A stretch of DNA of 64,000 nucleotides from Schmidtea polychroa (lineage: Eukaryota): contig CM097885.1 in NCBI GenBank assembly GCA_044892525.1, positions 17,672,001-17,736,000 of the forward strand, read 5' to 3'. Positions within the stretch are counted from its first letter, which is position 1. Each line of letters opens with the position of its first letter. The position numbers and the translations under genes were made by a program. This document shows positions 25,258 through 57,118 of this stretch, piece by piece. Below the pieces are notes generated by a model, which saw only the letters and a list, made by a program, of their open reading frames with translations, had not been told where the DNA came from and made no database searches.

Positions 25258-25565
25258 AGTAGTGTGTATCTATCCCTAACGACCACAAGCCTCCCAGCTG
25301 TTTTCATGTTTTATACCTATTTTTTTCCCGTTTTATACCTATTTTTCCCCCATAAACGTAAAAAAAAAACACTTAAAACCTTAAAAACCTATATCTTTTA
25401 ATTTCTTTATTCCGAAGACATTTTGCTTTCAAAATAAAAACTTAAAAAACAACAAAAATATTAAAAAAACAACACAAAATGTTAATAAAACAGGGAAAAA
25501 AATACTGATAAAACTATGAAAAACGTTTGTCGGCTTGCGGTCGTTAGGGATAGATACACACTACT
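25258..25565. repeat. Left TIR of B, itself bounded by a 34-bp inverted repeat
   Basis: AGTAGTGTGTATCTATCCCTAACGACCACAAGCC ... GGCTTGCGGTCGTTAGGGATAGATACACACTACT. Confidence 0.92.
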
Positions 25566-25567
25566 TG

Positions 25568-25718
25568 CAGGTCGCCAGTTTATCAAGTCGCCAGTTTATC
25601 AAGTCGCCAGTTTATCAAGTCGATAGTTTGTCAAGTCAATGATGCAATCGCTGCGGTCTTGGCAAGTCGACAGCTTGGTAAGTCGACAGCTTGGCAGGTC
25701 GATAGCTTGGCAAGCTGC
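25568..25718. repeat. Subterminal 16-bp tandem repeats
   Basis: GTCGCCAGTTTATCAA x3, then GTCGA(C/T)AG(C/T)TTG variants. Confidence 0.85.
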
Positions 25719-25875
25719 TAGAATATAAATATAAAAAAAATAAAAAAAAAATAAAAATAAAAATAAAAAAATAAAAAAAATAAAAATAAAAAAAAATAAA
25801 AATAAAAATAAAAATAAATATATAAAAATTTAAAATTTAAAAACAACGTATCCAGTAAAAAAATTTTTTCTAAAA

Positions 25876-28800
25876 ATGAATTGTAATATTTGCAATAAAG
25901 TTTTTAAAAATAAAACAGGATTAATTTCTCACTATAAATCGAAAGCTCACTTACTAAAAGAAAATAATCTTAATGACACAAATTCAAAAGTTTGTACTAA
26001 ATGTAAAGGAAGATTTCTACATTCTGGATATAATAAACATTTTGAAAATTGTATCGGGAAAAATAGAGAAATATTTACATGTCCTCATTGTAACTTTTCA
26101 ACAAAACTAAATTTCTATTATTTAAGACATTTAAAAGAATGTAAAAATAAAAAACAAAATTCTGACGTTGAAGAATGTCATTCAGAAGGAGAACCTGATC
26201 ATGTTGAAAGAGAAAAATACAACTGGGATGATTTTAATCATATAGATGAATTTCAATTAAAAATTAATGGACCTGCAACCCCTGGAGAATATATAAGGAG
26301 AAATAAAAAAAATATTAAAAATTCTTTCACTGAAGCTTTAAAAAATTATAAACCAACAAGGTATAATGTTATAAAATATAAAATTACAATCAAAGCAAAA
26401 TATTGGAGAGGACCAGAAGAAAAGACAACTCCTTTAGATGTTGAAATTGGAATACCTTTTAAATATTTATTTTCAACTAGAGGATTTAATAAAAGCATCA
26501 AAGAAATAATTCAAGCAGTAGAAGCAAAACAAGAAGAGGTTGAAAATGAATTAGGAGATTCAAACTTAGTATTCAACTCTTTCCAAACTTTAGTGATTGA
26601 TTATTGGAGAGGATTACCACCTAATCCTAAATCTTATATTCAAACACCCTTTAGATCTAGGGTTGTTATAAATGTACAGAATAAGGATAACAAATGTTTC
26701 ATGTGGTCAATACTTGCATATTTACATCCTCAAGCTGAAAACCCTCAAAGAGTTTCAAAATACAAACAATATGAAAATGAATTAATATTTCCCAAGGGAT
26801 TCACACACCCAATGAAACTAGAAGACATTCCAGAATTTGAAAAACTAAATAATCTTAAACTTAATATTTATGAACATGTTAAAGGATGGGGACATGGAAG
26901 GAAAGATATTATTCCAATTTATATTTCTGATAGTGATAGCACGAGGGAGATATATCTTTTAATCTTGGAAGAAGGAAATAATCAACATTATGTTTTAATA
27001 AAAGACTTTCAAGCTTTTACATCACCAGAGAATCCAACTAGTGGAGGAGGAACATGTAAAAGATGTCTTCATTATTCAACAACTAAAAACTCTATGATTA
27101 AACATGCAAGATTTTGTGAAAAAGATGATCCAGCTTTAATTAGAATGCCTACAGATCCCAGGATGTATTTTAAAAACTTTACAAATTTATTACAAACATT
27201 AGGAGTTGTCTATGGAGACTTTGAATCTATAAATCGTAAACAAGATATAATTATGCAATATTTAAAAATAATAGAAAAATATAAACTCATGGATGAATGG
27301 AAAGCCTCTAAACAGAAGATGAAACCAGAGAGGATGAAAGCCTTTCTAAGAAAAAGAAATAAACCTAATAGTGTTAAAAAAACTAAACAATTACCATCTG
27401 CTTATAAATTATTATTTAAAAGTAATTATAGAATCTAGAGAATATGCATTTCAAGGAACTTCAGAAGATGTTTTAAATCATTTTACTAAAAGTATAAATG
27501 ATCTAGAACATGAAATATTTAAAATATTAAAAACAAAGTATCCTCAAAAAATTTCTAATCAACAACAACAAGAATATGAAAATACTTCCAACTGTTGGAT
27601 GTGTAAACAAGACATTCTTCCTGATGATAAAGTTATAGATCACGATCATTTAAAAAAGGAAAATAATTATCGAGGAGCAGCCCATAGAAATTGTAATCTT
27701 AATTGTCATACTCCTAAATTTGTACCAGTTATATTTCATAATCTTTTTGGTTATGACATACATCTATTTATTAAACATTTAGCAGAAAATGCTAAAAACT
27801 CTTTCAAAGTTATAGGACTTACAAAGGAAAAATATAAATCAGTTGAATATGGAAAATTAAAATTTATAGACTCGTTAAACTTTCTCAAATGTCTCTAGAT
27901 GGAATAGCTAAAACAATGAAAGCAGAAAATTTTAAAATCACTCGAGAATTCTTGGAAAAAAATAATATCCCCCAGAAGAATATCCTACATGCTTAGCAAA
28001 AGGAATATATCCCTATGACTATGTTGATTCATTTGAAAAATATAATGAAACAAAATTACCAGAGAAAGAAGATTTCTATTCCCAACTTCAAAAATCTCAT
28101 ATTACAAATCAAGAATATTCTCGAGCAAATAAAATGTGGGATCTTTTCAACTGTAAAACTTTAGGAGAATATACAAGTATGTACTTATCCCTAGATGTTT
28201 ATATTCTAGCAGATTGCTTTGAAGAATTTACAAAGTCTTTTGTTCTTAAACCTTATAATTATATAACAGCTCCTTCTTTAGCTTGGGATACTATGTTATA
28301 TACCATTTGGACTTCAGATCTTCCAGAATCTGATAAAATTATAGATCTTTTAACCGACCAAGATATGTTTAATCAAATTAAAACAAACATTAGAGGAGGA
28401 GTATCTTCAGTAATGGGGAATAGAGAAATAAAAGCTAGAAATGCAATAACTACTAGCCGAAGAATCTCTAAACACCCTGATCCATATATAAAACTTAACA
28501 ATGAGGAACTAAAAGAAGTATTAGAAGGAATGAAAAATCCTCTATTTATACTTTATATAGATGCAACAGCTTTATATTCAGGAATTATGACTCAATATTT
28601 ACCAATGAGTGACTTTCAAGAAATATACTCCTCTGAAGGACTTCCAGAAATAGAATGCCCTCCAGAAGAATATTTAAAGACTCTTATGAATGAAATACTT
28701 TCAACTCCTAAAGATTCTCCAATAGGATACTTTGTAGAATGTGACCTCGACTACCCAGATGATATAAAATCAGGAACAAGACATTTCCCTTTAGCTCCTA

Positions 28801-30200
28801 TAAGAAGAAAGATTGATATCAACGAACTTTCACTCTGGCAAATCTCACAAGATAAACCTCCAACAATGAAACTTCTTTGTGATCAAACAGATCGAACTTA
28901 TTATCTTTGTCACTATAGACTCCTCCAGTTTTATCTTTCACAAGGAATGATATTAAAAAAAGTTCATAGTGTCATAAGATTTAAACAAGCAGCATTCATG
29001 AAGACTTTCATCGAGGAGAACATTCGTTGTCGAAACATTGCAAAAAGAGAAGGTAACCTTTTAAAAGACAATAATTATAAACTTTTAAACAATTCAGTCT
29101 TTGGGAAGACAATGGAGAATGTTGATAAATATACTCATATTGAACTCCTAACAAATACCCCGAAAGATATAGCCCGTTATAATCGTATGCTAGGAAAGCC
29201 TACATTTAAAAATGCAGAAGTATTTTCTGAAAATCTTACTGCAGTAGAACTACAGAATTTTGAGAAAACATATAATAAACCAATATTTATCGGCTTTGCA
29301 ATTTTAGAACTTTCAAAATTACAAATGTATGAAACATATTATAACATCTTACAACCTATATATGGATCGAATATAGCAATGCATGCAATGGATACAGATT
29401 CAATGTTTTTAACAATAAGAACTCACGATTTACAAAGTGATATCTCTGAAAATCCTATACTTTCAAATTTAATAAATTCATCTGGAGAATTATTTTCGTT
29501 TAAAGATGAAAAACCTTTTACTCCTATAGAAAATGGAATATTTATTCGTGCTAAACAATATTCATATGAAACATTTACAAATCCTAAATTTGAAGAACAT
29601 TCATTTATATTTAAAACCCCAGAAACAGAAGAAAGCATTACACATAGATATCCTATATTCCCTAAAGGACCTGACGGACAGGGAGAAAAACCTGTAAAGG
29701 ATAACAGATGTAAAGGAATTCAGAGATGTGTAGCAAAGAATCTTTCTCATCAAGATTATATAGATACATTGAATCCAAATCATAAAGATAAAATTGATGA
29801 AATACATCAACTTAAAAGTGAAAAGCATGATATTTACTTGATAGAATCCCAAAAAGTATCATTATCAAATTATGATGACAAAAGATTCATACTAAGTGAT
29901 TTAAAGACAACTCTTCCTATAGGAAATAATTTAATACCGATAATAAAAAATCTTGATAGATTGAATCAGTTATATGGTACAAAGATTACTGATCTTGATA
30001 TTTATAATGTTGAAATCATTTATCCTGAGAGAATTGAGAAACCTTTATATTCTCAAGTTTTTAATCCTATATGTTTAGAACTTAAATATTTTAATACTGA
30101 TCCTGAATATATAAAAGGTCTAAGTGATAAAGAATTTAAAGATCATAAAGAGGTTCTAAAAACTAATTTCGAAAAGTTAACATCAGATTCTATCAAATGA
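25876..30200 (+). pseudogene. Protein-primed family B DNA polymerase of B (frameshifted)
   Basis: N-terminal C2H2 fingers, INVQNKDNKCFMWS, VYGDFES, EndoVII-like DHDH...YRGAAHRNCN, FHNLFGYD, YIDATALY, KLLNNSVFGKT, MDTDS, CKGI, YDDKR. Frame breaks near 27430 and 27895-27980. Confidence 0.95.
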
Positions 30201-30274
30201 TTTTTTTCTTTTAAAAATGTCAACAATTAATTTAAGAGTGACAACATCAACCTTTTGAAGGGCAATAAATTTTT

Positions 30275-30895
30275 TTATGTATGATTCTTTAGCCACTTCT
30301 TTCGTTTAATTTTTTTAGAATATTCATTACTTATAACATTAGCACTTTTTAATCTTATAACCTCATTTTTAATATCTTGTATTATTTGATTTGATTTCAT
30401 TATTTCTTCGTCTGTTAGGATTCCATCTTCCAAAGCTTTTAATTGAAATAAAAATAATTTAGAGATTCCTAATTCTATTGATAAACAAACTTCTCTATAT
30501 AAACTTTTCTTTTTAGAAGTATAAGATAATGAAACTATTTCAGTTAAGAAACCATCAGCTACAGAAATACTTCCAAGTATTACAGGTGCAAGAGTAACAA
30601 CTGGTAAAGTTATGGGTAAAATAACTGTTAATATTGCAGATGCAAATCCTAAATAATAACCTATAACTTTTAAAACTGTATTCCCTTTATTCCATCTATT
30701 TTTAATTTTTTTATAATGCTTTAATAAATCTTGTAAATGTAAGGTTTCTGATTTAAATTCTTTTACTCTCATAATTTCAAGTTCTGTGGGAGCCGAGGCC
30801 TTGGAACCTTTGTGACCTTCGGAATAATATCTTGATGACAATTCTGGGTAAATTTTTTCTTCTCTTACTTCTTCCATCTTTTGGACTTTGTCCAT
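30275..30895 (-). CDS. Polinton putative membrane protein
   Basis: Central hydrophobic hairpin and KALEDGILTDEE motif. Conserved in E (61775-62386). Confidence 0.7.
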   Translation of the reverse strand: MDKVQKMEEVREEKIYPELSSRYYSEGHKGSKASAPTELEIMRVKEFKSETLHLQDLLKHYKKIKNRWNKGNTVLKVIGYYLGFASAILTVILPITLPVVTLAPVILGSISVADGFLTEIVSLSYTSKKKSLYREVCLSIELGISKLFLFQLKALEDGILTDEEIMKSNQIIQDIKNEVIRLKSANVISNEYSKKIKRKKWLKNHT

Positions 30896-30903
30896 TTTAA
30901 TAA

Positions 30904-31908
30904 TTAAAAAAATAAGACTTTATTCTTCTGAGCACCATCTGGTACCAATACTCGGATATCAAAAGAAACTCTTGTTGAGAGAATATCTTTATACAATTCT
31001 CTCAATGCTTTACGAACTTCATCAACATCAACCTTTTTTTCATAAAATATTAAATCTATATATTGTACAAGTGTGCTTTTAAAAATAATATTCTTACTTT
31101 TAACTTTATGTAGTCCATGTGAATGAGTATTAACATACCAATCTCCGTGTGGTAAATCATAACTAGTCATTATAACATCACCCTTTTCAAGCTTACTATT
31201 ATAATCACATTTCACAAACCATTTCATTCTTTCATTATCATCATCAAACAAAAAGAAATAAGGATCAATAATCTTTACAACCATAAAAACACCCCATTCT
31301 TTACTGTTTGTTGTTATTAAACTTGGTTCTATAAAATGTTTATATGTATGGGGTAATAATGTTTTATTCTGTTCTAATTCAGCAGCTCTTTTTCTAATAC
31401 TATGTGTGGTGTTAATGTGTGTTCCATGAGACTTTAAATTTGAAATTCTTTTATTAAATGATGTAATCATCTCATTTATTATATTATATATTGTATTAAA
31501 TTTAGTATTCATAATTTGTTTATCTTTAGAATTTAATATGCTAGTATTTAACTTTACAACTTGTTCAGTTAACAGACTTTGTAACTTGTCAAATTTATCA
31601 TTAAATCGTTGTTCGATATTATTAAGCTTTGATTCCATTGAATCAATTTTTGTTGTTAATGAACTTTCAATTCTTGTTGTTGTTAAATCAGTATATTTTT
31701 TAACACCATCTACATATTTCTTATTAACTGCATCGAGATTATCAACTGGAAAAGATAAATCTTTTATCTTGTGTGCATTCATACTTAAATCACTCTTCAT
31801 TGAATCACCTCTTTCATTAATATATTTATTTTCTGTTAAAGTTAATATGTCTTCTGTATCAACCCCAATTGTTCCTCCACCTTTATTACATGGAATATAA
31901 GAACTCAT
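30904..31908 (-). CDS. Putative fibre/spike-like protein
   Basis: GDSMKSDLSMNAHKIKDL..P....DAVNKKYVD (tail-fibre/trimeric-adhesin-like motif), then a coiled coil and a globular C-terminus. Adjacent to penton and conserved in E. Confidence 0.6.
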   Translation of the reverse strand: MSSYIPCNKGGGTIGVDTEDILTLTENKYINERGDSMKSDLSMNAHKIKDLSFPVDNLDAVNKKYVDGVKKYTDLTTTRIESSLTTKIDSMESKLNNIEQRFNDKFDKLQSLLTEQVVKLNTSILNSKDKQIMNTKFNTIYNIINEMITSFNKRISNLKSHGTHINTTHSIRKRAAELEQNKTLLPHTYKHFIEPSLITTNSKEWGVFMVVKIIDPYFFLFDDDNERMKWFVKCDYNSKLEKGDVIMTSYDLPHGDWYVNTHSHGLHKVKSKNIIFKSTLVQYIDLIFYEKKVDVDEVRKALRELYKDILSTRVSFDIRVLVPDGAQKNKVLFF

Positions 31909-32012
31909 TTATTAGGGGATTAAAATACTTAAGAATTCCTCTCCCCCTTTGTACACTTCGTTAGTCCTTCTCCGCCTTCTCCCTTTTAGTCCTTCTCCCC
32001 CTTGTGACTTCC

Positions 32013-32768
32013 TCAGACCTGTTTCAAATGTAAATACATTGAAATCTCTTCTCCATTAAAATCAATCAATTCTCCTTCTTGATTAAGAATTTTAAAATTA
32101 ATATCCATTATATATTTTCTACATAAAGGTAAATAATTTGGAGGATTCATTCTTTCAACTATTTTATATCCCATAGGAACTGTGTTTGAGGGAAAGGAAT
32201 ATAAAACATTTGTTTGTTTACCATTATTATAAGAACCAGTTATACAATCGCAATGAATATTTATTGTGTTTGTATTTATTATTTTTATAATATTTTCTGA
32301 TGTAACTACAGGTGTGATATAATGGTTTCGTGTAAATCCTAAAATTGTTCTAAAGAAACTATTATTTTGAAAATGAATTCCTATATTCTCTAAAGTCATT
32401 ATACATTTTGAAGTTGGTAAATCCATTTTAATTTTAATGACTCCATTTGTTTTTTTAGAAAGTATATTATTTAAATCTTTTATCTCATAAGCTCCGGGTT
32501 CGATTGTTATTATAATCTTATCTGTAGATTTTGGGCTTATATAATAAAATATGTTATTATCTTTAGTTATATTAAAAATAGTATTATAAGCACAAAACCA
32601 TAATAGTCCTAATTCATAATTTAAATTTTGATCTAATTTAATTTAATCTTGAAAGTTTATAGTAAAGTCTGATTCTTTTGAATTTATAGATAAAGTTCTT
32701 GAATATTTATCTGACATTATGTTTACCATTTTTTTTAAATTATCTTCCGGAAGGTTGCGAAGCTCCAT
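32013..32768 (-). pseudogene. Polinton B minor capsid protein (penton) with premature stop
   Basis: Collinear with intact 59967-60731, but FQDSIK has become FQD*IK at ~32644. INIHCDCITGSY...LIDFNGEEI motifs. Confidence 0.88.
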
Positions 32769-32770
32769 TT

Positions 32771-33202
32771 TCATAGTATAGATTTTAAATCATTATAAAT
32801 TTCTTGGATTAAGGAAGTGAAACCTTCTCCTTTGGATTTATTCAATCTATACAAAACATATAAGCTTAAAATACCACATATTTTAGTATTATTAGGTTGA
32901 ACTTGTAAAGAATTAAAAGTGTAGTCCGAGAGATAGTCTTCAACTTCTTTAGTGGGTTTAATCCCAAAAGAATCAAAGTATATAGATTTATTATATATAC
33001 AAACCCAATGAGATCCTTTTTCATTTGAATTTTGATAATTTATAATGATATTCTTTGGAGTGTCTTCTTTCAGACTCGACAATTCATCATTCATTAATAT
33101 TTTTATTTTTAAATTTAAATAATCTGCATAATCTTTTAAATCAAAATTTGTTTTTGTATTTATTCCAAATGTTTTTAAAAAATCTAATATTGAAGGAGTC
33201 AT
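32771..33202 (-). CDS. Adenain-like cysteine protease
   Basis: GSHWVC, YFDSFG and QVQ...CG motifs. Confidence 0.92.
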   Translation of the reverse strand: MTPSILDFLKTFGINTKTNFDLKDYADYLNLKIKILMNDELSSLKEDTPKNIIINYQNSNEKGSHWVCIYNKSIYFDSFGIKPTKEVEDYLSDYTFNSLQVQPNNTKICGILSLYVLYRLNKSKGEGFTSLIQEIYNDLKSIL

Positions 33203-33224
33203 TTTATATTTTATAACTTTGTAT

Positions 33225-34022
33225 TTATAACTTCGTATACTTATTAAATTTATCTTTTGAAATTATTCCTTGTTTTAATAATTCTTTAGAAATCTTTAAA
33301 ATATCAGAATCTAAATTATTATGTCCTGCTTTTTTAGCTGCTAATAGTTTTCTTAATTCAATAAAAAGATTGATTGGGTTTATCTCCTTACCCTTTCCCT
33401 GGCCCTGACCCTGGCCCTCTCCTTCTGTGACAATATAACCCCTTTCATTTTTATTTAAATATTTCTTTAAATCTTGAATATGTTTTGCTTTAGCACTACC
33501 ATGTACTAATTCTATTAAATTTAAATATTTTTTAATTTCTAGAAGATCAACATTCTCTGAGGGATATCCACAAACTAATCCATAAAAATCATCTGTAAAT
33601 TCAAAATCTAGGTGTTTAGTATTATAAACATTTTGTGAATGAATACGTGATTTATTTTCTGAATTTAAATATAACAGAAAGTCATGTTTATTAATTGTTA
33701 TTATTTGATATCCTTCAACATTAATATTAAATGTAGGTTTAATTGTTTTACTTAAACTCACATTAATTTTAGGATCAAGTATAAGAGGTTTTATATTTAA
33801 ATCTCCCAACCATGGTAATTCTTTTAAATCTTGTTTATCTTCCAACTCTTTAAATTTTAAAACTTCTAACTCTTTTATGGCTTTAATTGTTGGTCCTTGT
33901 TGTTGTTGGATTACCTCATTTAATATTATAGATTCAGCGTGTTGAGTTGTATCTTTTTTATTATATTTATCTTGTTCTGATTGTAATTTTTTTAAAAGTG
34001 CTAATCTTTCTTCATATACCAT
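33225..34022 (-). CDS. Conserved Polinton protein of unknown function
   Basis: C-terminal LRKLLAAKKAGHN...ELLKQGII motif typical of Polinton ORFs. Homologue in E. Confidence 0.7.
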   Translation of the reverse strand: MVYEERLALLKKLQSEQDKYNKKDTTQHAESIILNEVIQQQQGPTIKAIKELEVLKFKELEDKQDLKELPWLGDLNIKPLILDPKINVSLSKTIKPTFNINVEGYQIITINKHDFLLYLNSENKSRIHSQNVYNTKHLDFEFTDDFYGLVCGYPSENVDLLEIKKYLNLIELVHGSAKAKHIQDLKKYLNKNERGYIVTEGEGQGQGQGKGKEINPINLFIELRKLLAAKKAGHNNLDSDILKISKELLKQGIISKDKFNKYTKL

Positions 34023-34044
34023 TTTAATGGTATTAAAAATGGTA

Positions 34045-34647
34045 TCATTTTGGTAAAGGATCCGTTGGAAAGGATTTCAAGTATAAACCTTTACCATTTT
34101 TAATTTTACAAAGACATCCATTCTTTAAAGATTTACATATTTTTTTAAAATCATCTTTATCTTTTGAAGATAAAGATTCAGATGATGAAATTTGATTTTT
34201 TAAAAAATCATTTAAACCACGGCCTTTATAAGGATCAAGATAGAGACCCCTTCCCTGAGACTTTTGCAGACTCCCCTCATATGGATTAAGATAGAGACCC
34301 TTTCCAACGGACACTCCCCCTTTAGCTTGATCCTTCTTCATTGAATCGATTTCAGTTTGTAGTTTTTCTTTTTCTAGGTCTGTCTTTTGAGATTCTTTAG
34401 CTTTTTGAACTGTAGTTGCAATTCCTCCAGCTATTCCAGCAGCACCTGATAGTCCGGCAATGATTGCAGGTATTAAAGCAGCTAATGGAAGAATGCCACC
34501 TTCTTTAGCTTCGTGGAGCTTCGCTCTAACTTGTTCTTTTACATGTTTTCCAATAAAATATTTTTTACCAGAGATTACTACTGATTTATTCTTGTCTGAA
34601 TTTATTAATTCTTGCAAAAATTCCTCTGTAGGGTTTTGTGTTGTCAT
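34045..34647 (-). CDS. Polinton core-like precursor protein
   Basis: EGGILPLAALIP...AGIAGGIA hydrophobic segment and repeated G(K/R)GL motifs. Confidence 0.75.
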   Translation of the reverse strand: MTTQNPTEEFLQELINSDKNKSVVISGKKYFIGKHVKEQVRAKLHEAKEGGILPLAALIPAIIAGLSGAAGIAGGIATTVQKAKESQKTDLEKEKLQTEIDSMKKDQAKGGVSVGKGLYLNPYEGSLQKSQGRGLYLDPYKGRGLNDFLKNQISSSESLSSKDKDDFKKICKSLKNGCLCKIKNGKGLYLKSFPTDPLPK

Positions 34648-34662
34648 TTTATAATAAATAAA

Positions 34663-35442
34663 ATGGATATTTGGAAACCAATTTTAAATAGACATAAGAG
34701 TAAATTTAATAATAAAGTATTTCCTGATAATTTTAGATGCTTAATTATTGGATCTTCTGGATGTGGAAAGAATGTTCTTCTTTTGAGGATGTTATTAGAA
34801 GATGGTTTTTTAGATTATAATAATTTAATCTTTTATTCTACAACCATTAACCAACCAGAATTACAACTTTTGAAATGTGGATTTGAAAATAAATTAACTA
34901 AAAAAGCTATAATTGATATTTTTAAAAATCAACATACATATCCCGAAGAGGTTTTTCATCCTTGTGATATGGTTGATTGGTACAAGGAAAAGATTTTAGA
35001 ATCAGATATTAGTAATAAAAATGATTATATAGGGGATGGAATCCAGATCTTATTCTCTAATAAACCTGAAGATGTTTTACATTGTGATTTACTTCCTAAA
35101 GATAAAAAGAATCTAGTTATATTTGATGATGTTGTTAACATGAAAAATCAAGAGATTCAAAAGAGTTACTTTACACGAGGTAGACATAATAATTGTAATG
35201 TTATTTATATATCTCAAACATATTATGCTTTAGATAAAAACTCTATAAGAAATAATTCTAATTGTTTTATATTTTTTAAATTAGACAAGCGTGATAAGAA
35301 TATGATTTATAATGATTTATTTTCAAATGTTGAACCTGATAAGAATATGTTTGATATGTTTGTTGATAATCATTGGAAAGAAAAATATAATTATATTTAT
35401 TTGGATAGAGAAGAAGCTGAAATGTGGAAAAGTTTATTTTAG
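34663..35442 (+). CDS. Polinton B packaging ATPase
   Basis: GSSGCGK, VIFDD, RGRHNN, YISQ and IRNN motifs. Confidence 0.93.
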   Translation: MDIWKPILNRHKSKFNNKVFPDNFRCLIIGSSGCGKNVLLLRMLLEDGFLDYNNLIFYSTTINQPELQLLKCGFENKLTKKAIIDIFKNQHTYPEEVFHPCDMVDWYKEKILESDISNKNDYIGDGIQILFSNKPEDVLHCDLLPKDKKNLVIFDDVVNMKNQEIQKSYFTRGRHNNCNVIYISQTYYALDKNSIRNNSNCFIFFKLDKRDKNMIYNDLFSNVEPDKNMFDMFVDNHWKEKYNYIYLDREEAEMWKSLF

Positions 35443-35453
35443 GGCTTGTCGAC

Positions 35454-36842
35454 TTAAAAATCTGTTTTCTGTAACTCATTATTATAAAATCTACCTAATA
35501 TTTTTTCATTATTTAAATCGATGATACCATATGTTATTGGAGTTGTATGATGTATTTTATTTATAATAAAAATTTCATTTGTCCATTTTGCTGTGAATCC
35601 TTTTTCAAATTTATTTTTATATTTAAATATTCTTACGCGGTCACCAATTTTAAATTTTGGTTTTATAGGGGTTGTATCAACAATAACATCATTTTCAATA
35701 TTTACCACTTTAATGGTTTCAGGCTTCATGGAAGCATTTAAGGGTGTTGATTTTATAGAACTATGTACATCATTATTATATTCATTTACAATCTTTTGTA
35801 ACAATTCATTATTCCATTTTTGTTTTCCAATAGCAGTAAAATATTTCCACATTTTATATTTTAATGTTCTATTTAATCTTTCAACTACGACTGCTTTTCC
35901 TTCGTTTTCTGTTGAATATAATTTAATATCATTTTCATTTAAAAACTTTGTAAAAACTTTGTTATAAAATTCTGTTCCTTTATCACACCATAAATATTTT
36001 GGAATTCTTTGATATTCTTCAAATATATTTTCAAATGCTTCTGTAATTGAATATCCTGTTTTATTTTCTAAACACCTTGCAAAAGCAAATCTTGTATATA
36101 AATCTATTACTGTTAAAATTATTTTATATTTTTCAGGGTCTGATGATTTGGGCATAAAGACTAAATCAGCAGACCATGTTTGATCTTTTTCATGTACTTG
36201 AACTTTTAAATATTTTTTATTTTTTCTAAATTCATGGTGTAATTCGTTGGCATATTTTATTTCTGATTCTGTTGGGTTTTGTAAGGGTTTATTCTCAAAG
36301 AGTTGATTCTCAAGGGATCTTTCAACGTCTGCTTGTTCAATAATCCTTTTATTAGCAACATCTTTTGCTTTTCTAGGAAGTCCTGCTCCTATGAAAATCT
36401 TACCTTTCATTGCTAATTTAACTAGAGCTCTTTGAATCTTTTCTTGGGTTGATGGGTTTTGTATATTATTTAAATCATGTATTAAATTCACATCAGCAAC
36501 ATGTCTATCTCTAAGATCTTCTGAATTGTAAGCAATATCATGTTTTAAAGCTGCTTGGTCGATTCTATTTATTGGTTCTTCTCCTTGTTTAGGATTATTA
36601 TTTTCATCTAATCTAATATCTAATCTTGTTCCTGGCCCAGTATAATTGTGTTTAAATAAATGTCTTTTACCTGGATATTTTTCTGTAGTAAAAGGTTTTA
36701 ATATTGAAGATGTTGTTTTTGAAGATTGTAGATCACCTCCTGTAATATCAACTCTCGTATGTTTTTTAGTTTTGAGATGACTTGCTTTGTGATGTCTTGT
36801 AACTTGACAATTACAACTTTCACATGTCCAATATTTACTCAT
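35454..36842 (-). CDS. Zinc finger - phospholipase A2 - integrase fusion
   Basis: CESC...HLKTKKH. Parvovirus-type PLA2 NYTGPGT...PINRIDQAALKHDIAY...AD. Intact D-D-E core (WSADL, LWCDKG, VVERLNRT). No chromodomain. Confidence 0.92.
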   Translation of the reverse strand: MSKYWTCESCNCQVTRHHKASHLKTKKHTRVDITGGDLQSSKTTSSILKPFTTEKYPGKRHLFKHNYTGPGTRLDIRLDENNNPKQGEEPINRIDQAALKHDIAYNSEDLRDRHVADVNLIHDLNNIQNPSTQEKIQRALVKLAMKGKIFIGAGLPRKAKDVANKRIIEQADVERSLENQLFENKPLQNPTESEIKYANELHHEFRKNKKYLKVQVHEKDQTWSADLVFMPKSSDPEKYKIILTVIDLYTRFAFARCLENKTGYSITEAFENIFEEYQRIPKYLWCDKGTEFYNKVFTKFLNENDIKLYSTENEGKAVVVERLNRTLKYKMWKYFTAIGKQKWNNELLQKIVNEYNNDVHSSIKSTPLNASMKPETIKVVNIENDVIVDTTPIKPKFKIGDRVRIFKYKNKFEKGFTAKWTNEIFIINKIHHTTPITYGIIDLNNEKILGRFYNNELQKTDF

Positions 36843-36871
36843 TTTAAAAGTTTTTTTATGGGGGAATCTAC

Positions 36872-38167
36872 TTATGAAGAATCTCCCCTAACATTTTCAA
36901 TAATTGAAATCTTTCCACCATATAATTTCATTTCTATTTTCTTTTCTTCTAATATTAATGTATATACTTTAGCTTTAAAATTAGAATCCTTTGTTATATG
37001 AAGTGTAACATCAACATTATTTATAGCTAGGCGATCATCTTGGTCTGATACATTTATACAAAATATAGAATATAAATTTTTGAAATCTTCTAAACTTAAT
37101 TGCGGTTCAACTTTGAAATCATAACATGTTTCAATATAATTTAGATATGGGAATATGTTTTCATTATTTTCAATATTAAATTCCATTCTATTTATTGGAT
37201 AATAAGAACTATTTAATTGAATTTGGATTGTTTTTAAATTATCATCTCCAATCTTTTGAATAAATAGATTGTTATTTTTTTGGAAAGATGAATCTACTTC
37301 TTTGAATCCAATCAAGATATATCTTGGTCGGTATGCTAAATTTGCCACCTTTATAGAATATGTTGAACCCTCTGTCATACTAAATTCACTACAGATTCTA
37401 TTTAAATAATTTACATTTATAGACTTGTTGGAATTTAATCTTTCAAGGAGTTTGATTTCAGAATGTGGGTTTAATGTCCATTCAGGTATATGCAATTCAA
37501 GTGTTGATAATTTTAATTTAGCTGTTGTGTCTGCAGCTCCATAGAACAATCTTTTATCACCTTCTACTCTATTACAGATGAGTTCTATAAAAACATTATG
37601 AAGTACACGGTTATAATTTTGAAGGAATCCAAATAAGTGTTTTAATTCAAAATAACCTTCAAATTTTTTCAACTTAAAAAGTTCAACTCTTTTATAGTAA
37701 GCATAATTTATATCTAAACCATCTTTATCTAAATCCCCTTTATTAACATCAGGAATCCAACCTGTTAATTCACCATATTCGTTTTTATAATCACAACCAG
37801 TTAAAATAAAATTTAACATTGTAGAATATACTCCTGGATGCAAAACAGTTTCAATTTCTGATGATCCTAGTTTTAATCTCATGTTGGAGAATAAATTTGG
37901 AAAGAAATTATTTTCTAGGGTTATATCTTTGTTTGCTTCAATTTCGAATTCAATTTTATAATATAATTTGGCATTACAAATATCTATTGGGTTTGATGTT
38001 TGAAGAGATTGAAAAACTATATCACCCCTACGATTTAAGTTTGCAATAGATCCTGAAGTTGGCGAGATTTTTAAAATATCATTTTTCTTGATTTCATGAG
38101 TAAATTCTTTATTATAATCAAGATTTAATTTATTTTTTTCTTGAATTTTAAGATTTATATTATTCAT
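36872..38167 (-). CDS. Polinton B major capsid protein
   Basis: Intact 431-aa ORF with NNFFPNLFS, LKHLFGF, RPRYILIGF and YSIFCINVS motifs, consistent with a Polinton double jelly-roll MCP. Confidence 0.85.
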   Translation of the reverse strand: MNNINLKIQEKNKLNLDYNKEFTHEIKKNDILKISPTSGSIANLNRRGDIVFQSLQTSNPIDICNAKLYYKIEFEIEANKDITLENNFFPNLFSNMRLKLGSSEIETVLHPGVYSTMLNFILTGCDYKNEYGELTGWIPDVNKGDLDKDGLDINYAYYKRVELFKLKKFEGYFELKHLFGFLQNYNRVLHNVFIELICNRVEGDKRLFYGAADTTAKLKLSTLELHIPEWTLNPHSEIKLLERLNSNKSINVNYLNRICSEFSMTEGSTYSIKVANLAYRPRYILIGFKEVDSSFQKNNNLFIQKIGDDNLKTIQIQLNSSYYPINRMEFNIENNENIFPYLNYIETCYDFKVEPQLSLEDFKNLYSIFCINVSDQDDRLAINNVDVTLHITKDSNFKAKVYTLILEEKKIEMKLYGGKISIIENVRGDSS

Positions 38168-38203
38168 TTATATAATAAAAATTTAAAAAATGATAAAAAT
38201 CCG

Positions 38204-38286
38204 AACTCCGATAGCGCAGTGGGCTAGACTGGCACAGTGGTTCAAATGGATAGCGGTTCAAATCCTAACTACGGTTAGTTTTTTTT
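38204..38286 (+). ncRNA. Putative Pol III tRNA-like small RNA, B copy 1
   Basis: A box TAGCGCAGTGG (38212), B box GGTTCAAATCC (38255), T8 terminator. Confidence 0.6.
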
Positions 38287-38436
38287 AACATAAAATAATA
38301 TTAAAAATTTGAAAATAATATTGAAAATGGTGTGGGTATCTTAGATTTATATTTTATTTTATTTATTTTTATTTTATTTTATTTATTTTATTTTATTTTT
38401 TTATTAATTAAAAATTTAAAAAATGATAAAAATCCG

Positions 38437-38519
38437 AACTCCGATAGCGCAGTGGGAATAGACTGGCACAGTGGTTCAAATGCTAGCGGTTCAAATCACG
38501 TCTGAGGTTAGTTTTTTTT
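38437..38519 (+). ncRNA. Putative Pol III tRNA-like small RNA, B copy 2
   Basis: A box at 38445, B box GGTTCAAATCA at 38488, T8. Part of a ~233-bp tandem duplication. Confidence 0.55.
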
Positions 38520-38689
38520 CAACATAAAATAATATTAAAAATTTGAAAATAATATTGAAAATAATTTTTGAAAATAAATATTAAAAAAATATATAGTGTG
38601 GGTATCTTAGGAAATAAATCTTGTTTATTTTATTTATTTATTAATTAATTAATTTTTAAACATAAATATGAAAAAAAAAATATTGAAAC

Positions 38690-39050
38690 GGGTGTGGTGG
38701 CGAACCGGTAATTATCGCCACCAGTCTTTCGAACACCCCCGGATCGATTCTATAATGTGCACATTTATTTCTTGGTTGTTTTCGGACCTCTTTCGGATTC
38801 GCTTTCGAATTCATTTGTACTTTCGAGCAGCACACTTAAAACGCCGATGAAATCGACTTCGTGAGCGAGAAGCGAATAATAAGGTGTGCTGCTATTATCG
38901 AATTGATTCTGATATATGAGTCTGGCCAGCTTGTATATTGGAAGAGATTTGATAAACGAAAGAGGTTGAAATAAAAAAAAAATGATCCGGATCAAAAAAA
39001 ACTGTTGAGAGGACAGTGAAAAAAAAATACCACTGTCCTCCCAGAGCAGT
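38690..39050. other. Conserved GC-richer structured non-coding subterminal region of B
   Basis: Hairpins GGTGGCGA/TCGCCACC, GCAGCACAC/GTGTGCTGC and GAGGACAGTG/CACTGTCCTC. Conserved at 52995-53375 and partly at 48675-48860. Confidence 0.65.
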
Positions 39051-39142
39051 TTTACTATTTTCATAAAATTTTTTATTCTTCAAGATTAAGATTTATAAAA
39101 TTATAAATTAGTCAAATAGCAACTTGCTAGTTGACATCCTCA

Positions 39143-39408
39143 AGTAGTGTGTTTATATCCCTAACGACCGCAAGCCGACAAACGTTTTTCATAGTTTTAT
39201 CAGTATTTTTTTCCCCGTTTTATTAATATTTTTGTTGTTTTTTTTAAGTCTTTATTTTGAAACCAAAATGTCTTCAGAATAAAGAAATTAAAAGATATAG
39301 GTTTTTAGGGGTTTTAAGTGTTTTTTTTTACGTTTATGGGGGAAAAATAGGTATAAAACATGAAAACAGTGGGAGGCTTGTGGTCGTTAGGGATATAAAC
39401 ACACTACT
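39143..39408. repeat. Right TIR of B, itself bounded by a 34-bp inverted repeat
   Basis: AGTAGTGTGTTTATATCCCTAACGACCGCAAGCC ... GGCTTGTGGTCGTTAGGGATATAAACACACTACT. Confidence 0.92.
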
Positions 39409-48234: not shown

Positions 48235-48526
48235 AGTAGTGGTGAAACTAGTCGCCTTGCCCACCCCTTCCCTATTATGTTAGATCTGTATTTTAATAAA
48301 TTTGTAAGATCTAAAAATCTCGGGTGTCTATGTTTAGAATATATTGAATTTTTAAAATTTCAGGTATTAGTATTTGGATTTATTGAATCTATAAAATCTC
48401 GGGTGTCTGATTTAGAGGATATTAAATTTTGAGAAATATTGAAATATTAAATAATACGTTTTTATTATTCACAAATGTTGCGATTATGGGGTGGGGTGAG
48501 GCAAGGCGACTAGTTTCACCACTACT
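48235..48526. mobile_element. AGTAGT-bounded hairpin cassette (mini Polinton-end-like unit)
   Basis: Perfect 27-bp inverted repeat AGTAGTGGTGAAACTAGTCGCCTTGCC. No TSD found. Confidence 0.75.
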
Positions 48527-51560: not shown

Positions 51561-52632
51561 AAATTTATTTCTTTGTCAAGGTTTTTCGTTTCTGACATAT
51601 TTCACAACTTTGTGTATATTGACACACGATTTTATTTAATTCCTAAATATCGTAATTTATTGATTTTTATTGTACATTTAGTGTATTTTAATTGATTAGT
51701 TGAGATGAAATAATAGCAAATCAAACGAGAAAAGTTTATGTATACTACCTGGATTTTGTCATTATTTCAAAAAATAAGTCTGAGAAATATTAAGAAGAAG
51801 CATTCATTATTTAAACCAGTTTATGCTTTCCATGATTATGAAATGCATTTATTGAAGAAACCAATAGATTATAATTTGATGAAACCTAATGCATTAATGA
51901 AGAAATGCAATAATTATTGGATTGAACAATTTGATGAAGATATTCAAGATGCTATTGGTACATTATTGGCATGTATCAATAAGGACCTTGTGATTTATGA
52001 AAGCGGATCATTTCTAGGTGGACAATCAAGTGAATTTTAAGAAGAAAATAATCAAATACCTTTTAAACCAGATTTTAACCCTTTCCTATCTTGTGTCTAT
52101 AAAAATATGACAAAAAGAAATTAACCATTCTATCCTCTGTCTGTAAAAAAATAACATTATTTCTAAATAGTTTATTTCCCATGCACTGTCAATTATATTA
52201 TAACCAACTGTTATGACCAAAAACTAAAAAAAAATAATTTTTTGAAAATTTTTTAAAATTTTATTAGGATTGGAAGGGCTGGACACCTAAAATAAACAAG
52301 ATAGGAAAGGGTTAAATGGAATTTGAAAATATGTATCCAAGGTTTCAAAACAGCACCAAGTGCAGTTAAATATTACTAGTATGGAACATTATAAGTTGAA
52401 AATTATAAACAACGATTAATGTTAATATTGTTCAGTTTGTTTAATAAAAGTTTTACAAAATCTTAATTTTATGTTGTTATAAAAATACTTTGAAATTTAA
52501 AATTCAAATTATTTATTCAATATAAGTTTCATTGGTTTCATTAATGTTGACAAATATTAATTACCGAGGACGAGTCCATTTGAAAATTATACGAAATATG
52601 AGATATCCATCAGGTAAACCTCAACAAAATTT

Positions 52633-52873
52633 AGTGAGGAATCTATGCACCCCAGCACCCCCACCCTAAAAAAAACAGCGCTATTGACCCATATTTTCCA
52701 CATTTATATGCTTTTTTACCCCATATTCTTCACTTTTTTTAACTTTTAAACTTTGTCCCTATTGCCATTAACCCTTAATTTCTTCCCTTAAAAGTAAAAA
52801 AGTTCGGAATAGATGTATTTATAGATTAGTAATTCCGAGAAAAGGTAACGGGGTGCATAGATTCCTCACTACT
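52633..52873. repeat. Terminal hairpin cassette of E
   Basis: AGTGAGGAATCTATGCACCCC (52633) inverted with GGGGTGCATAGATTCCTCACTACT (52850-52873). Confidence 0.85.
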
Positions 52874-52994
52874 TGGTCTTAAGGATTTAATGTTATAAGA
52901 ATATCAGATTACCTAATTCATAATGATCTAGGTCGCCTGATCACCTTAAGGTTTTGAAAGTTTTAAAAATAAAAAATTTTATGAAAATAGTAAA

Positions 52995-53375
52995 ACTGCT
53001 CTGAGGGGACAGTGGTATTTTTTTTTTTTTTTTTTTTTTTCACTGTCCCCTCAACAGTTTTTTTTTGATCCGGATCATTTTTTTTTTATTTATCAACCTC
53101 TTTCGTTTATCAAATCTCTTCCAATATACAAGCTGGCCAGACTCATACATCAGAATCAATCCGATAATAGCAGCACGCCTTATTATTCGCTTCTCGCTCA
53201 CGAAGTCGATTTCAACGGCGTTTTAAGTGTGCTGCTCGAAAGTACAAATGAATTCGAAAGCGAATCCGAAAGAGGTCCGAAAACAACTGAGAAATAAATG
53301 TGCACATTACCGGGATCGATCCGGGGGTGTTCGAAAGACAGGTGGCGATAATTACCGGTTCGCCACCATCACCCG
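52995..53375. other. Conserved structured non-coding subterminal region of E
   Basis: Reverse complement of 38690-39050 with few changes. Confidence 0.65.
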
Positions 53376-53529
53376 TTTCAATATTTTTTTTTTCATATTT
53401 ATGTTTAAAAAATAATTAATTAATAAAAAAATAAAATAAATAAAATAAAATATACAAGTACTTTATAAATATAAGATACCCACACTATTTTCAATATTAT
53501 TTTCAAATTTTTAATATTATTTTATGTTG

Positions 53530-53612
53530 AAAAAAAAACTAACCTCAGATGTGATTTGAACCACTATCCATTTGAACCACTGTGCCAGTCTATTCCCACT
53601 GCGCCATCAAGG
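53530..53612 (-). ncRNA. Putative Pol III tRNA-like small RNA, E copy 1
   Basis: A box TGGCGCAGTGG, B box GGTTCAAATCA and T-run. Orthologue of the B copies. Confidence 0.55.
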
Positions 53613-53860
53613 TTTGAATTTTTGTCATTTTTTAGACTATAAATAATCGATTCAAGTTCTTTAACTCTTTCCTGTAATTGTTTCATTTTCTTCAATCTTA
53701 TATCAGCAACATCTACAGCCTTCATATAAAAATGTCGATACTTTTCATTATCTACCATCAACTCTTTGATGTATTCTAATGGTTCTTCTTCTCTTCTTTT
53801 CATTCTCTTATGTTTAACTTCATTCAATTCATTTCTCATTCTTTCTTTTAACTCATCCAT
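53564..53860 (-). CDS. Small coiled-coil protein present in E but not B
   Basis: 98-aa charged helical ORF with an AAAATG start. Confidence 0.55.
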   Translation of the reverse strand: MDELKERMRNELNEVKHKRMKRREEEPLEYIKELMVDNEKYRHFYMKAVDVADIRLKKMKQLQERVKELESIIYSLKNDKNSNLDGAVGIDWHSGSNG

Positions 53861-54017
53861 TTTTATAAATATTTTTTTATTGGATATATTAATTTTTGGT
53901 AGTTAAAACGTTTTTGATCTTAAATTTCCAAGAGTTGCCGTTGACCAATCACCTTAAAAATTTGTAAAAGTACTAAATCGAGTATGCTGATCAATATTTT
54001 GTTTAAAAAAAAATTTG

Positions 54018-54099
54018 AAAAAAAATTGACCGAAATGGGATTTGAACCCATTGGTATTGGCAATGCAGTCGAGTGCTATTACCACTAAGCTATTAGAGC
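54018..54099 (-). ncRNA. Putative Pol III tRNA-derived small RNA, E copy 2 (tRNA-Cys-like 5' half)
   Basis: TAGCTTAGTGGTAATAGCACTCGACTGCA, perfect T arm ATGGG-TTCAAAT-CCCAT, T8. Acceptor and anticodon stems do not pair. Confidence 0.65.
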
Positions 54100-54261
54100 T
54101 ATACTCAATATAAAATAAGTTGTTAATGTGTGACTATTTATTGATGAAATTAATAATTAATTATTCATTTTCTCGACAACTACCACTCAGATCGATCTGA
54201 AAATTTAAATATATACTAAAATCAGTACGCTGAATCAGATTCCGTTGAAAAAAAAATATCG

Positions 54262-54343
54262 AAAAAAATTGACCAAAATTGAAAATTGAACCCGGTACTC
54301 CCGGTGATAAAATTGAAGCCTATTCCCACTCCGCTATAATGGC
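54262..54343 (-). ncRNA. Putative Pol III tRNA-like small RNA, E copy 3
   Basis: A box TAGCGGAGTGG, weak B box GGTTCAATT, and the same GGTCAATTTTTTT end as copy 2. Confidence 0.45.
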
Positions 54344-54399
54344 TTACATAATATATTTAATTAATCCTATTGTGTGTGTGTAAATTTTAATATATAAAA

Positions 54400-55692
54400 A
54401 TGAATAACATAAATCTTAAAATTCAAGAAAAAAATAAATTAAATCTTGATTATAATAAAGAATTTACTCATGAAATTAAAAAAAATGATATTTTAAAAAT
54501 CTCCCCAACTTCAGGATCTATTGCAAACTTAAATCGTAGGGGTGATATAGTTTTTCAATCTCTTCAAACATCAAACCCTATAGATATTTGTAATGCCAAA
54601 TTATATTATAAAATCGAATTAGAAATTGAAGCAAACAAAGATATAACCCTAGAAAATAATTTCTTTCCAAATTTATTCTCCAACATGAGATTAAAACTAG
54701 GATCATCAGAAATTGAAACTGTTTTGCATCCGGGAGTATATTCTACAATGTTAAATTTTATTTTGACTGGTTGTGATTATAAAAACGAATATGGTGAATT
54801 AACAGGTTGGATTCCTGATGTTAATAAAGGGGATTTAGATAAAGATGGTTTAGATGTAAACCATGGTTACCATAAAAGAGCTGAACTTTATAAATCTAAA
54901 AAATTTGAAGGTTATTTTGAATTAAAACACTTGTTTGGATTCCTTCAAAACTATAATCGTATACTTCATAATGTTTTTATAGAATTCATCTGTAATAGAG
55001 TAGAAGGTGATAAAAGATTGTTCTATGGAGCTGTAGATACAAAAGCTAAATTAAAATTATCAACACTTGAATTACATATACCTGAATGGACATTAAACCC
55101 ACATTCTGAGATTAAACTCCTTGAAAGATTAAATTCCAACAAGTCTATAAATGTAAATTATTTAAATAGAATCTGTAGTGAATTTAGTATGACAGAGGGT
55201 TCAACATATTCTATAAAGGTAGCAAATTTAGCATACCGACCAAGATATATCTTGATTGGATTCAAAGAAACAGATTCATCTTTCCAAAAAAATAACAATC
55301 TATTTATTCAAAAGATTGGAGATGATAATTTAAAAACAATACAAATTCAATTAAATAGTTCTTATTATCCAATAAATAGAATGGAATTTAATATTGAAAA
55401 TAATGAAAACATATTCCCATATCTAAATTATATTGAAACATGTTATGATTTCAAAGTTGAACCGCAATTAAGTTTAGAAGATTTCAAAAATTTATATTCT
55501 ATATTTTGTATAAATGTTTCAGACCAAGATGATCGCCTAGCCATAAATAATGTTGATGTTACACTTCATGTAACAAAGGATTCTAATTTTAAAGCTAAAG
55601 TATATACATTAATATTAGAAGAAAAGAAAATAGAAATGAAATTATATGGTGGAAAGATTTCAATAATCGAAAATGTTAGGGGAGATTCTTAA
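54400..55692 (+). CDS. Polinton E major capsid protein
   Basis: Intact 430 aa, nearly identical to the B MCP. Confidence 0.87.
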   Translation: MNNINLKIQEKNKLNLDYNKEFTHEIKKNDILKISPTSGSIANLNRRGDIVFQSLQTSNPIDICNAKLYYKIELEIEANKDITLENNFFPNLFSNMRLKLGSSEIETVLHPGVYSTMLNFILTGCDYKNEYGELTGWIPDVNKGDLDKDGLDVNHGYHKRAELYKSKKFEGYFELKHLFGFLQNYNRILHNVFIEFICNRVEGDKRLFYGAVDTKAKLKLSTLELHIPEWTLNPHSEIKLLERLNSNKSINVNYLNRICSEFSMTEGSTYSIKVANLAYRPRYILIGFKETDSSFQKNNNLFIQKIGDDNLKTIQIQLNSSYYPINRMEFNIENNENIFPYLNYIETCYDFKVEPQLSLEDFKNLYSIFCINVSDQDDRLAINNVDVTLHVTKDSNFKAKVYTLILEEKKIEMKLYGGKISIIENVRGDS

Positions 55693-55709: not shown

Positions 55710-57118
55710 ATGTCTTTAAATAAATATTGGAGATGTGAAACTTGTAATTGTCAAGTTACAAGACATCATAAAGCAAGCCATCTTAAAACTAAAAAACATA
55801 CAGTAGGTGACCTAATTCCACGAGCTGGAGGCGATTTGCAATCTTCAAAAACAACATCTTCAATATTAAAACCTTTTACTACAGAAAAATATCCAGGTGA
55901 AAGACATTTATTTAAACACAACTATACTGGACCAGGAACACGTCTAGATATTAGATTAGATGAAAATAATAATCCCAAACAAGGAGAAGAACCAATAAAT
56001 AGAATTGATCAAGCAGCTTTAAAACATGATATTGCATACAATTCAACAAATCTTAGAGATAGACATGTTGCAGATGTGAATTTAATACATGATTTAAATA
56101 GTATCCAAAATCCATCAACCCAAGAAAAGATTCAAAGAGCTCTAGTTAAATTAGCAATGAAAGGTAAGATTTTCATAGGCTTAGGACACAGTCCGATCAC
56201 CATGGGTGCAAGACTTCCTAGGAAAGCAAAAGATGTTGCTTATAAAAAGATTATCGAACAAGCAGAGATTGAAAGATCCCTCGAGAGTACAGCCAAGACT
56301 AGTTTACAAACCCCAACAGAATCAGAAATAAAATATGCTAATGAATTACACCATGAATTTAGAAAAAATAAAAAATATTTAAAAGTTCAAGTACATGAAA
56401 AAGATCAAACATGGTCTGCAGATTTAGTCTTTATGCCCAAATCATCAGACCCTGAAAAATATAAAATAATTTTAACTGTAATAGATTTATATACGAGATT
56501 TGCTTTTGCAAGATGTTTAGAAAATAAAACAGGATATTCTATTACAGAAGCATTTGAAAATATATTTGAAGAAAATCAAAGAATCCCAAAATATTTATGA
56601 TGTGATAAAGGAACAGAATTTTATAACAAAGTTTTTACAAAGTTTTTAAATGAAAATGATATTAAATTATATTCAACAGAAAACGAAGGAAAAGCAGTCG
56701 TAGTTGAAAGATTAAATAGAACATTAAAAAATAAAATGTGGAAATATTTATTGCTATTGGAAAACAAAAATGGAACAATGAATTGTTACAAAAGATTGTA
56801 AATGAATATAATAATGATGTACATAGTTCTATAAAATTAACACCTTTAAATGCTTCCATGAAGCCTGAAACCATTAAAGTGGTAAATATTGAAAATGATG
56901 TTATTGAAAAACCAAAGTTTAAAATTGGTGACCGAGTAAGAATATTTAAATATAAAAATAAATTTGAAAAAGGATTCACAGCAAAATGGACAAATGAAAT
57001 TTTTATTATAAATAAAATACATTATACAACTCCAATAACATATAGCATCTTTGATTTAAATAATGAAAAAATATTAGGTAGATTTTATAATAATGAACTA
57101 CAGAAAACAGATTTTTAA
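55710..57118 (+). pseudogene. ZnF-PLA2-integrase of E, disrupted
   Basis: Same domains as in B. TGG>TGA at 56598-56600 and a frameshift near 56730-56750. Confidence 0.92.

Follow-up and report, generated by a model that had tools for sequence, protein, structure and literature searches.

Why should a virus-like transposon keep, between its capsid gene and its end, a row of short sequences that each carry the promoter boxes and terminator of a Pol III gene? The question is raised by a Polinton lying within the 64-kb stretch of DNA analysed here (the window), in which a first-pass annotation had noticed three co-oriented A box/B box/T-run units beside the capsid gene. These units were confirmed, with exact coordinates and all on the minus strand; their direction (away from the capsid gene), an interleaved 98-aa open reading frame (ORF) and a nearby folded region had not been recorded. 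The question bears on how Polintons escape host silencing and on how the expression of their capsid gene is timed; the literature that we searched contains no non-coding function for these elements.

Two Polintons and their five units

The window is AT-rich (GC 14-42% per kb) and contains several Polinton/Maverick elements. One of them, Polinton B (25258..39408, 14.15 kb), is complete, with palindromic AGTAGT-type terminal repeats, identical 6-bp flanks (a target-site duplication) and genes for pPolB, integrase, ATPase and capsid. The cluster belongs to another element, E, which is inverted relative to B and 69-97% identical to it gene by gene (97% for the capsid protein); the proteins of B and E give Pfam matches to pPolB, a retroviral-type integrase, a double jelly-roll (DJR) capsid protein and an A32-type ATPase. 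Polinton E leaves the window ahead of its polymerase gene and has a single end inside it. Its DJR major capsid protein is encoded at 54400..55692 on the plus strand (PF21738, E=1e-26), and a palindromic AGTAGT-type end piece at 52631..52873, positioned by reference to B and differing from it in sequence, is probably its terminal repeat. A third Polinton copy, D, is partial (capsid protein 84% identical).

The terminal repeats at 25258-25567, 39143-39408, 48235-48526 and 52631-52873 are all palindromes, and those of B, D and E represent three unrelated versions. The PLA2-like/integrase gene of E (55710-57118) consists of two ORFs; its B counterpart is one 462-aa frame. Elsewhere in the window, a ubiquitin and DUF1759 ORF has on either side a copy of a proteasome alpha-6 fragment (2978-3707 and 6880-7607; the copies are 98% identical), and a long near-perfect inverted repeat (42003-42155) attracts sub-threshold miRNA family matches. 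The proteasome fragment aligns at 123 bits to the top solved-structure entries (mammalian) and at 88-91 bits to the following group (plant and yeast), which makes an animal host probable. Another element carries a TBP-fold ORF (9546-10010, minus strand; PF00352, E=8e-13) head to head with a helicase/ATPase-like ORF. An element-encoded TBP serving E as a TFIIIB helper was considered and rejected, since this gene lies in the other element and neither E nor B contains a match to it.

All three units of E lie between the capsid gene and the element end and are directed away from the capsid gene. E1 (54262..54343, minus strand; 54343 is its tRNA position 1) has a perfect A box at 54336, a B box at 54292 without the invariant C61, and a T7 run. 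Both boxes are perfect in E2 (54018..54099, minus strand; A box 54092, B box 54048), which ends in T8, while E3 (53530..53613, minus strand) has its A box at 53606, its B box at 53562 and a T9 terminator whose final T is position 53530. Two units of the E3 type occur on the plus strand in B, about 960-1200 bp inside its right end and outside the terminal repeat, namely B1 (38205..38286; A box 38212, B box 38255) and B2 (38438..38519; A box 38445, B box 38488). Scored against the A-box consensus, the A boxes of all five units are free of mismatches. The B box is perfect in E2 and B1 and has one mismatch in the others, at the last position in E3 and B2 and at C61 in E1. Every unit has an A-to-B spacing of 43-44, an oligo-T terminator of T7-T9 right at the tRNA 3' end, and 74-75 nt between tRNA position 1 and the T-run.

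When a perfect A box and at most one B-box mismatch were required over the whole 64 kb, only these five units were found, against a mean of 0.0 in 60 local shuffles. A pattern built from the units once they were known matched 5 times, where 100 dinucleotide shuffles predict 0.01, and a profile of the five detected nothing beyond them in the window and 45 loci. By these counts, the predicted units are a real, non-random feature. There are no dispersed copies outside the elements in the rest of the 64 kb, and the units stop at the T-run, without the body or tail of a tRNA-derived SINE. Their spacings (244, 486, i.e. about 2 x 243, and 233 bp) perhaps merely reflect the size of a duplicated monomer.

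Promoter boxes, unit interiors and duplications

E2 matches the tRNA family of Rfam (RF00005) at 32.4 bits, above the gathering score of 29; E1, E3, B1 and B2 have no tRNA match in Rfam, and ARAGORN predicts 0 tRNAs in the window. No unit retains a full cloverleaf. E2 has its T stem at 5/5 pairs, D stem at 3/4, acceptor stem at 5/7 and anticodon stem at 2/5, with GCA as anticodon. The D, anticodon and T stems have been lost from E1 and E3, and degeneration has gone furthest in E1 (T stem 3/5, anticodon stem 2/5). Acceptor pairs, 5-6 of 7 in E1-E3, form a partial terminal stem; covariation within this stem was considered and set aside as too weak (own pairs 5-6/7 against 3-5/7 when swapped, by hand count).

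Positions 8-37 of E2 are nearly identical to tRNA-Cys(GCA). A pattern running from the D loop to the anticodon, widened with known tRNA-Cys positions, matched 17 public loci, in 8 of which ARAGORN found a tRNA, each time a tRNA-Cys(GCA) at the match. E2 agrees with these eight at 27-29 of 37 positions in the 5' half and poorly over positions 38-49, and with the best of the 17 loci at 29/37 over positions 1-37, identities that the pattern itself partly forces. The tRNA-Cys-like 5' half and perfect T arm of the first-pass annotation are thus recognizable in E2 (29/37 to the best locus; T stem 5/5), whose 5' half is, to judge from its sequence, derived from tRNA-Cys.

The other interiors are of a different kind. 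Four of the five units fold no better than shuffled sequences (z of -0.24 for E1, -0.33 for E3, +0.26 for B1 and +0.32 for B2), the exception being E2 (-2.61). In place of the anticodon region, E3, B1 and B2 carry an additional perfect A box that is fused to an additional B-box core; in E3 these extra boxes (53587 and 53578, minus strand) make up the middle of the unit. The proposal of variable RNA payloads is not supported by this analysis, as the middle spans only 26-27 nt, holds no hairpin ahead of the terminator, folds like shuffled sequence in four units and consists of additional boxes in three. With the adenovirus VA RNAs in mind, we found no ACCC partner within any unit and no VA family (RF00102) among Rfam matches up to E=10.

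The orthology of one unit with those of B was borne out, E3 matching the B units at 84-88% (blastn). B1 and B2 represent a tandem duplication of the E3 type (233 bp), which is recent. E1 and E2 lie in a 492-bp block (53891..54382, minus strand) of two tandem monomers of ~244 bp, which is absent from some public contigs and both borders of which carry one 6-nt AT-rich word. This duplication, annotated earlier at ~240 bp, has a period of 244 bp and an identity of 74% over 94 nt (blastn, E=1.7e-10). In the ungapped alignment of E1, E2 and E3, 16 of 20 box columns are invariant against 2 of 27 in the middle, with the length unchanged, although part of the box conservation is built in, the units having been chosen by their boxes. 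Between E1 and E2 the boxes agree at 17/20 positions and the middle at 11/27, which is the level of shuffles (Fisher p=0.002). The upstream flank (34/56 identical) falls below the boxes (p=0.04), whereas the downstream flank (42/61) is not significantly below them (p=0.13). From these identities, the middle has diverged more rapidly than the flanks, and the boxes do not clearly exceed the downstream flank. The earlier claim of boxes better kept than the sequence between them stands. Selection on the Pol III promoter and terminator, as had been proposed, is nevertheless well supported by the sequence (boxes, spacing of 43-44 and T-run kept; middle at random identity).

The block 3' of E1 and E2 (54200-54245 and 53955-54000, minus strand) is conserved to roughly the same degree as the boxes (42/61) and might act as another cis element. 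E1, E2 and E3 are, in our reading of the alignments, three types of one ancestor. Since E1 is E3-like in its 5' part and E2-like in its flanks, the comparison suggests recombination, or a later refreshing of E2 from a host tRNA.

Optional blocks and neighbours of the cluster

The number of units was rightly described as variable: there are 2 in B, 3 in E and none in D between the capsid gene and the end piece, and public contigs occur without E1 and E2 or without the ORF. In contigs of runs X5 and X19, position 53634 is joined to 54382-54393, which places an E3-type unit immediately beside the capsid gene, and in contigs of X14, X18 and X5, 53890 is joined to 54383, giving the capsid gene, the ORF and E3 without E1 and E2. 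Because public contigs join the capsid gene to the E3-type unit with or without the ORF, the E end region appears as a composite, in which two optional blocks precede a recurring E3-type unit.

One DNA run has 6,535 contigs on a 4.6-kb stretch, in keeping with a large and varied family. Summed DNA depth in X5, which is not a copy number and gives only a hint of a large family, is ~80,000 over E1 and E2, 27,000 over the ORF, 282,000 over E3, 290,000-460,000 over the capsid gene and 11 at 52770-52923. At 53078-53385 the summed depth (18,795 and 2,273 in X18; 5,787 and 5,541 in X14) is much higher than at the capsid gene (0-133 in X18; 226-719 in X14); depth over E3 is ~650-1,150 in X18, E1 and E2 stay below 8 in X18 and X14, and X19 has little. 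X18 and X14 are RNA by guess and contig depth cannot rank parts, so these values speak neither for nor against transcription.

A search for relatives by capsid returned 0 loci from viral_contigs, 0 from genome_contigs and 36 from metagenome_contigs (19-52% identity). With up to 1+1 mismatches allowed, none of the 36 has an A/B pair, and none has an ARAGORN tRNA; they are a weak test, being mostly short and in no case shown to reach the element end. In nearly all of the 21 loci with at least ~300 nt upstream, the capsid gene is immediately preceded by other ORFs. DNA patterns of the E3 type gave 0 matches in viral_contigs and elsewhere 1 bacterial chance match.

The 98-aa ORF (53564..53860, minus strand) is situated between E2 and E3 in divergent orientation to the capsid gene and terminates inside E3, its final codons crossing the A boxes of that unit. 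It is optional across public contigs, and its product is charged and helical-looking. In its core, 8 of the 9 listed differences from one public contig fall at third codon positions and 5 of the 9 are synonymous against 0.166 expected (p=0.009), in a comparison that covered 21 of the contig's 23 differences, 12 of which lay outside the core. By this pattern the ORF looks like a real protein-coding gene. It has only weak Pfam matches and 0 homologues; one coiled-coil-type match (E=8e-4) was returned, as were unnamed Atlas clusters (0.92, low recognition).

Beyond E3, on the same strand, lies a candidate folded non-coding region (53085..53385, minus strand; B counterpart 38680-38975, plus strand). 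The minus strand of 53060-53390 has a folding z of -5.27, the plus strand one of -1.42, and a G-U-rich hairpin of ~25 bp at about 53105-53167, which is pre-miRNA-like, reaches -24 kcal/mol on the minus strand against -4 on the plus strand. Between E and B there are 15 differences, 8 of them in predicted pairs; in 6 of these 8 a change on one side leaves the pair intact, and the other 2 disrupt a small hairpin. No Rfam family was matched, and DNA patterns of the region gave 8 short viral matches in one search and 0 in another. Because AATAAA and A-runs follow on its 3' side, the folded region may be a separate transcript. A shorter version near D (48669-48865, plus strand) has neither the long hairpin nor any unit. 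A GGGU/ACCC pairing in the folded region was tried as a VA stem and rejected, as it amounts to two 4-mers not in the VA position.

Just inside the terminal repeat there is a hairpin with an A/T-run loop (52985..53057; B counterpart 38995-39050), which differs between E and B by one two-sided change and one mismatch. A GGGTRTCT motif with an AT-rich tail is exclusive to these end regions, with one site in E (53481, minus strand), two in B (38334 and 38600, plus strand) and four in D (48068, 48171, 48322 and 48401, plus strand), the element without Pol III units. A scan for bacterial promoters and terminators was empty and is irrelevant here.

Candidate functions and comparison with known Pol III loci

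These features suggest that the element probably recruits the Pol III machinery. The best explanation that we can offer, with a probability of roughly 0.45, is that the units are tRNA-derived type 2 Pol III mini-genes of the Polinton, in which selection would keep Pol III recruitment and termination, mainly in cis. Following established Pol III biology, host TFIIIC would bind the A and B boxes and load TFIIIB and Pol III, and the polymerase would make ~75-nt oligo-U RNAs directed away from the capsid gene. The bound complex itself may be the selected trait (the least certain step), as an open-chromatin or barrier element that would protect the promoter of the capsid gene and the end of the element against host silencing in the way that tDNA barriers do, and the RNA interior would then be free to drift or to be replaced by extra boxes. 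Such a role in cis is favoured by the contrast between boxes (16/20 invariant) and middle (2/27) at constant length, by the T7-T9 run ending all five units at tRNA position 74-75, by the shuffle-like folding of four of the five, by the extra A box and B-box core of E3, B1 and B2, which add factor sites and not RNA structure, and by the recurrence of the E3-type unit across contig variants. Two comparisons point the same way: the vtRNAs of MHV68, which act as RNAs, are described as 'remarkably similar' to each other, unlike the Polinton units (PMC4337559), and tDNA barriers require TFIIIC and Pol III (PMC2040200). Against it stand the selection of the units by their boxes, the nearly equal conservation of the E1/E2 downstream flank, the missing C61 of the E1 B box and the absence of units from D, which makes them dispensable for some relatives. 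The tRNA-Cys 5' half and perfect T arm of E2 would be needless in a pure DNA element, and a terminator is expected whether the units act in cis or in trans.

An action in trans is possible, though we hold it doubtful. In that case the units would give rise to plentiful oligo-U RNAs of ~75 nt with a triphosphate, and these would decoy host proteins that handle RNA or serve small-RNA defence (La, exportin, Dicer, Argonaute/Piwi), in the manner of VA RNA or vtRNA, with different types perhaps addressing different targets. The grouping of the units at the genome end, with a small protein gene among them as in TMERs, would fit (PMC4337559), as would the exact tRNA length with its partial terminal stem (5-6/7 acceptor pairs in E1-E3), the near-exact tRNA-Cys segment of E2 (29/37), which folds better than shuffles (z -2.6), and the strand-specific folded region just downstream on the same strand; in the same source, a single vtRNA partly restores MHV68 virulence. 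The units are, however, not VA-like, having half the length, no apical stem and no Rfam VA match; no pre-miRNA hairpin precedes the terminator, and the interiors are mutually unrelated and mostly unstructured. The units could instead be functionless relics, in which a single capture of a host sequence (a tRNA-Cys pseudogene or the head of a tRNA-type SINE) was followed by slippage duplication close to the capsid promoter and by decay. This would fit the E1 B box without C61, the variable copy number, the absence of units from D and all 36 distant capsid loci, and the share of box conservation due to how the units were found. Neutral decay would not give boxes at 16/20 beside a middle at 2/27 with constant length, the units occur nowhere else in the window and lack a SINE body or tail, and the 36 loci are a weak blank, being mostly short, with ends not reached and other genes beside the capsid gene; we regard this origin without function as unlikely.

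Two further proposals concern single parts of the cluster. The units might be promoters or upstream helpers of the folded region, through read-through or TFIIIB supply, producing transcripts with a tRNA-like leader and a hairpin; strand and order do follow a TMER-like layout and the long hairpin is strand-specific, but T9 comes directly after E3, an AT-rich spacer of ~145 bp with more T-runs follows, and the shorter folded version near D exists without any unit, which leaves this proposal very improbable. That E2 is a working tRNA-Cys aiding translation of the element genes has in its favour the Rfam score above gathering, the GCA anticodon in place and the intact tRNA genes known in polinton-like viruses (PMC12220804), and we consider it next to impossible given an anticodon stem of 2/5, an acceptor stem of 5/7 and no ARAGORN prediction in the window.

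A broader and rather speculative extension, on which we would sooner bet against than for, is that animal Polintons independently evolved a VA/TMER-like small-RNA locus. This would be a modular end cassette built from captured tRNA pieces (including a fresh half of a tRNA-Cys), exchanged and multiplied in increments of ~240 bp along with a small accessory protein gene and a neighbouring hairpin RNA, and blunting host small-RNA/dsRNA defences in trans. Degenerate Pol III units of the kind described here fall below the detection of ARAGORN and mostly below that of Rfam, and would thus be missed by tRNA surveys of such elements. Our literature search (thin on subscription papers and partly confined to titles and opening lines) returned no prior report of Pol III or VA-like units in polintons or adintoviruses; the supplementary tRNA tables of PMC12220804 could include Polinton entries. 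If the units were occupied by Pol III, they would allow a direct test of a transposon-borne chromatin barrier or of a VA-RNA analogue in an adenovirus-related lineage, and would offer a snapshot of the proposed path from tRNA to viral RNA.

Among known systems, the TMERs/vtRNAs of MHV68 come close to the predicted Polinton genes. They are tRNA-like Pol III genes of type 2, interleaved with small protein genes and not charged as tRNAs, and their placement together at one genome end and their multiplied A boxes may have counterparts in the Polinton (PMC4337559, PMC8223928). TMERs belong to an unrelated virus, keep a tRNA-like structure and carry miRNA hairpins (same sources), whereas the putative Polinton genes have divergent, mostly unfolded interiors and stop at the tRNA 3' end. 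The A boxes are two and separate in the E3 type against three and overlapping in the TMER, the position at the element end is shown for B, and in place of a tRNA-like part joined to miRNA hairpins, the nearest long hairpin lies more than 350 bp past the T9 of E3. Adenovirus VA RNAs I and II, encoded by viruses of a double-jelly-roll lineage related to the Polinton carrier (PMC8502044), likewise have a box A, a box B and a U-run terminator; they occur as head-to-tail copies thought to be duplicated, and an origin from a tRNA gene has been proposed (PMC7589676). According to the same paper, a VA RNA measures ~160 nt and folds with an apical, a terminal and a central (GGGU-ACCC) stem, while the Polinton units, placed at the element end, measure 74-75 nt, fold weakly and lack those stems.

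Genes derived from tRNAs are also known within elements related to Polintons: a collection covering polinton-like viruses (PLVs) as well as virophages has 558 tRNA matches, and maps of MELD viruses show predicted tRNAs (PMC12220804, PMC8502044). Those genes are identified as tRNAs and interpreted as codon helpers, whereas the Polinton units have lost the cloverleaf and kept the promoter. In yeast tDNA/TFIIIC barriers, A and B boxes recruit TFIIIC and Pol III beside a silencing-prone region (PMC2040200, PMC3395662). The known barriers are host tRNA genes or chromosomal B-box sites and not the cargo of a virus-like transposon; a Polinton barrier is putative. Compared at the level of sequence, the units resemble a viral type 2 Pol III locus that is neither a VA RNA nor a TMER.
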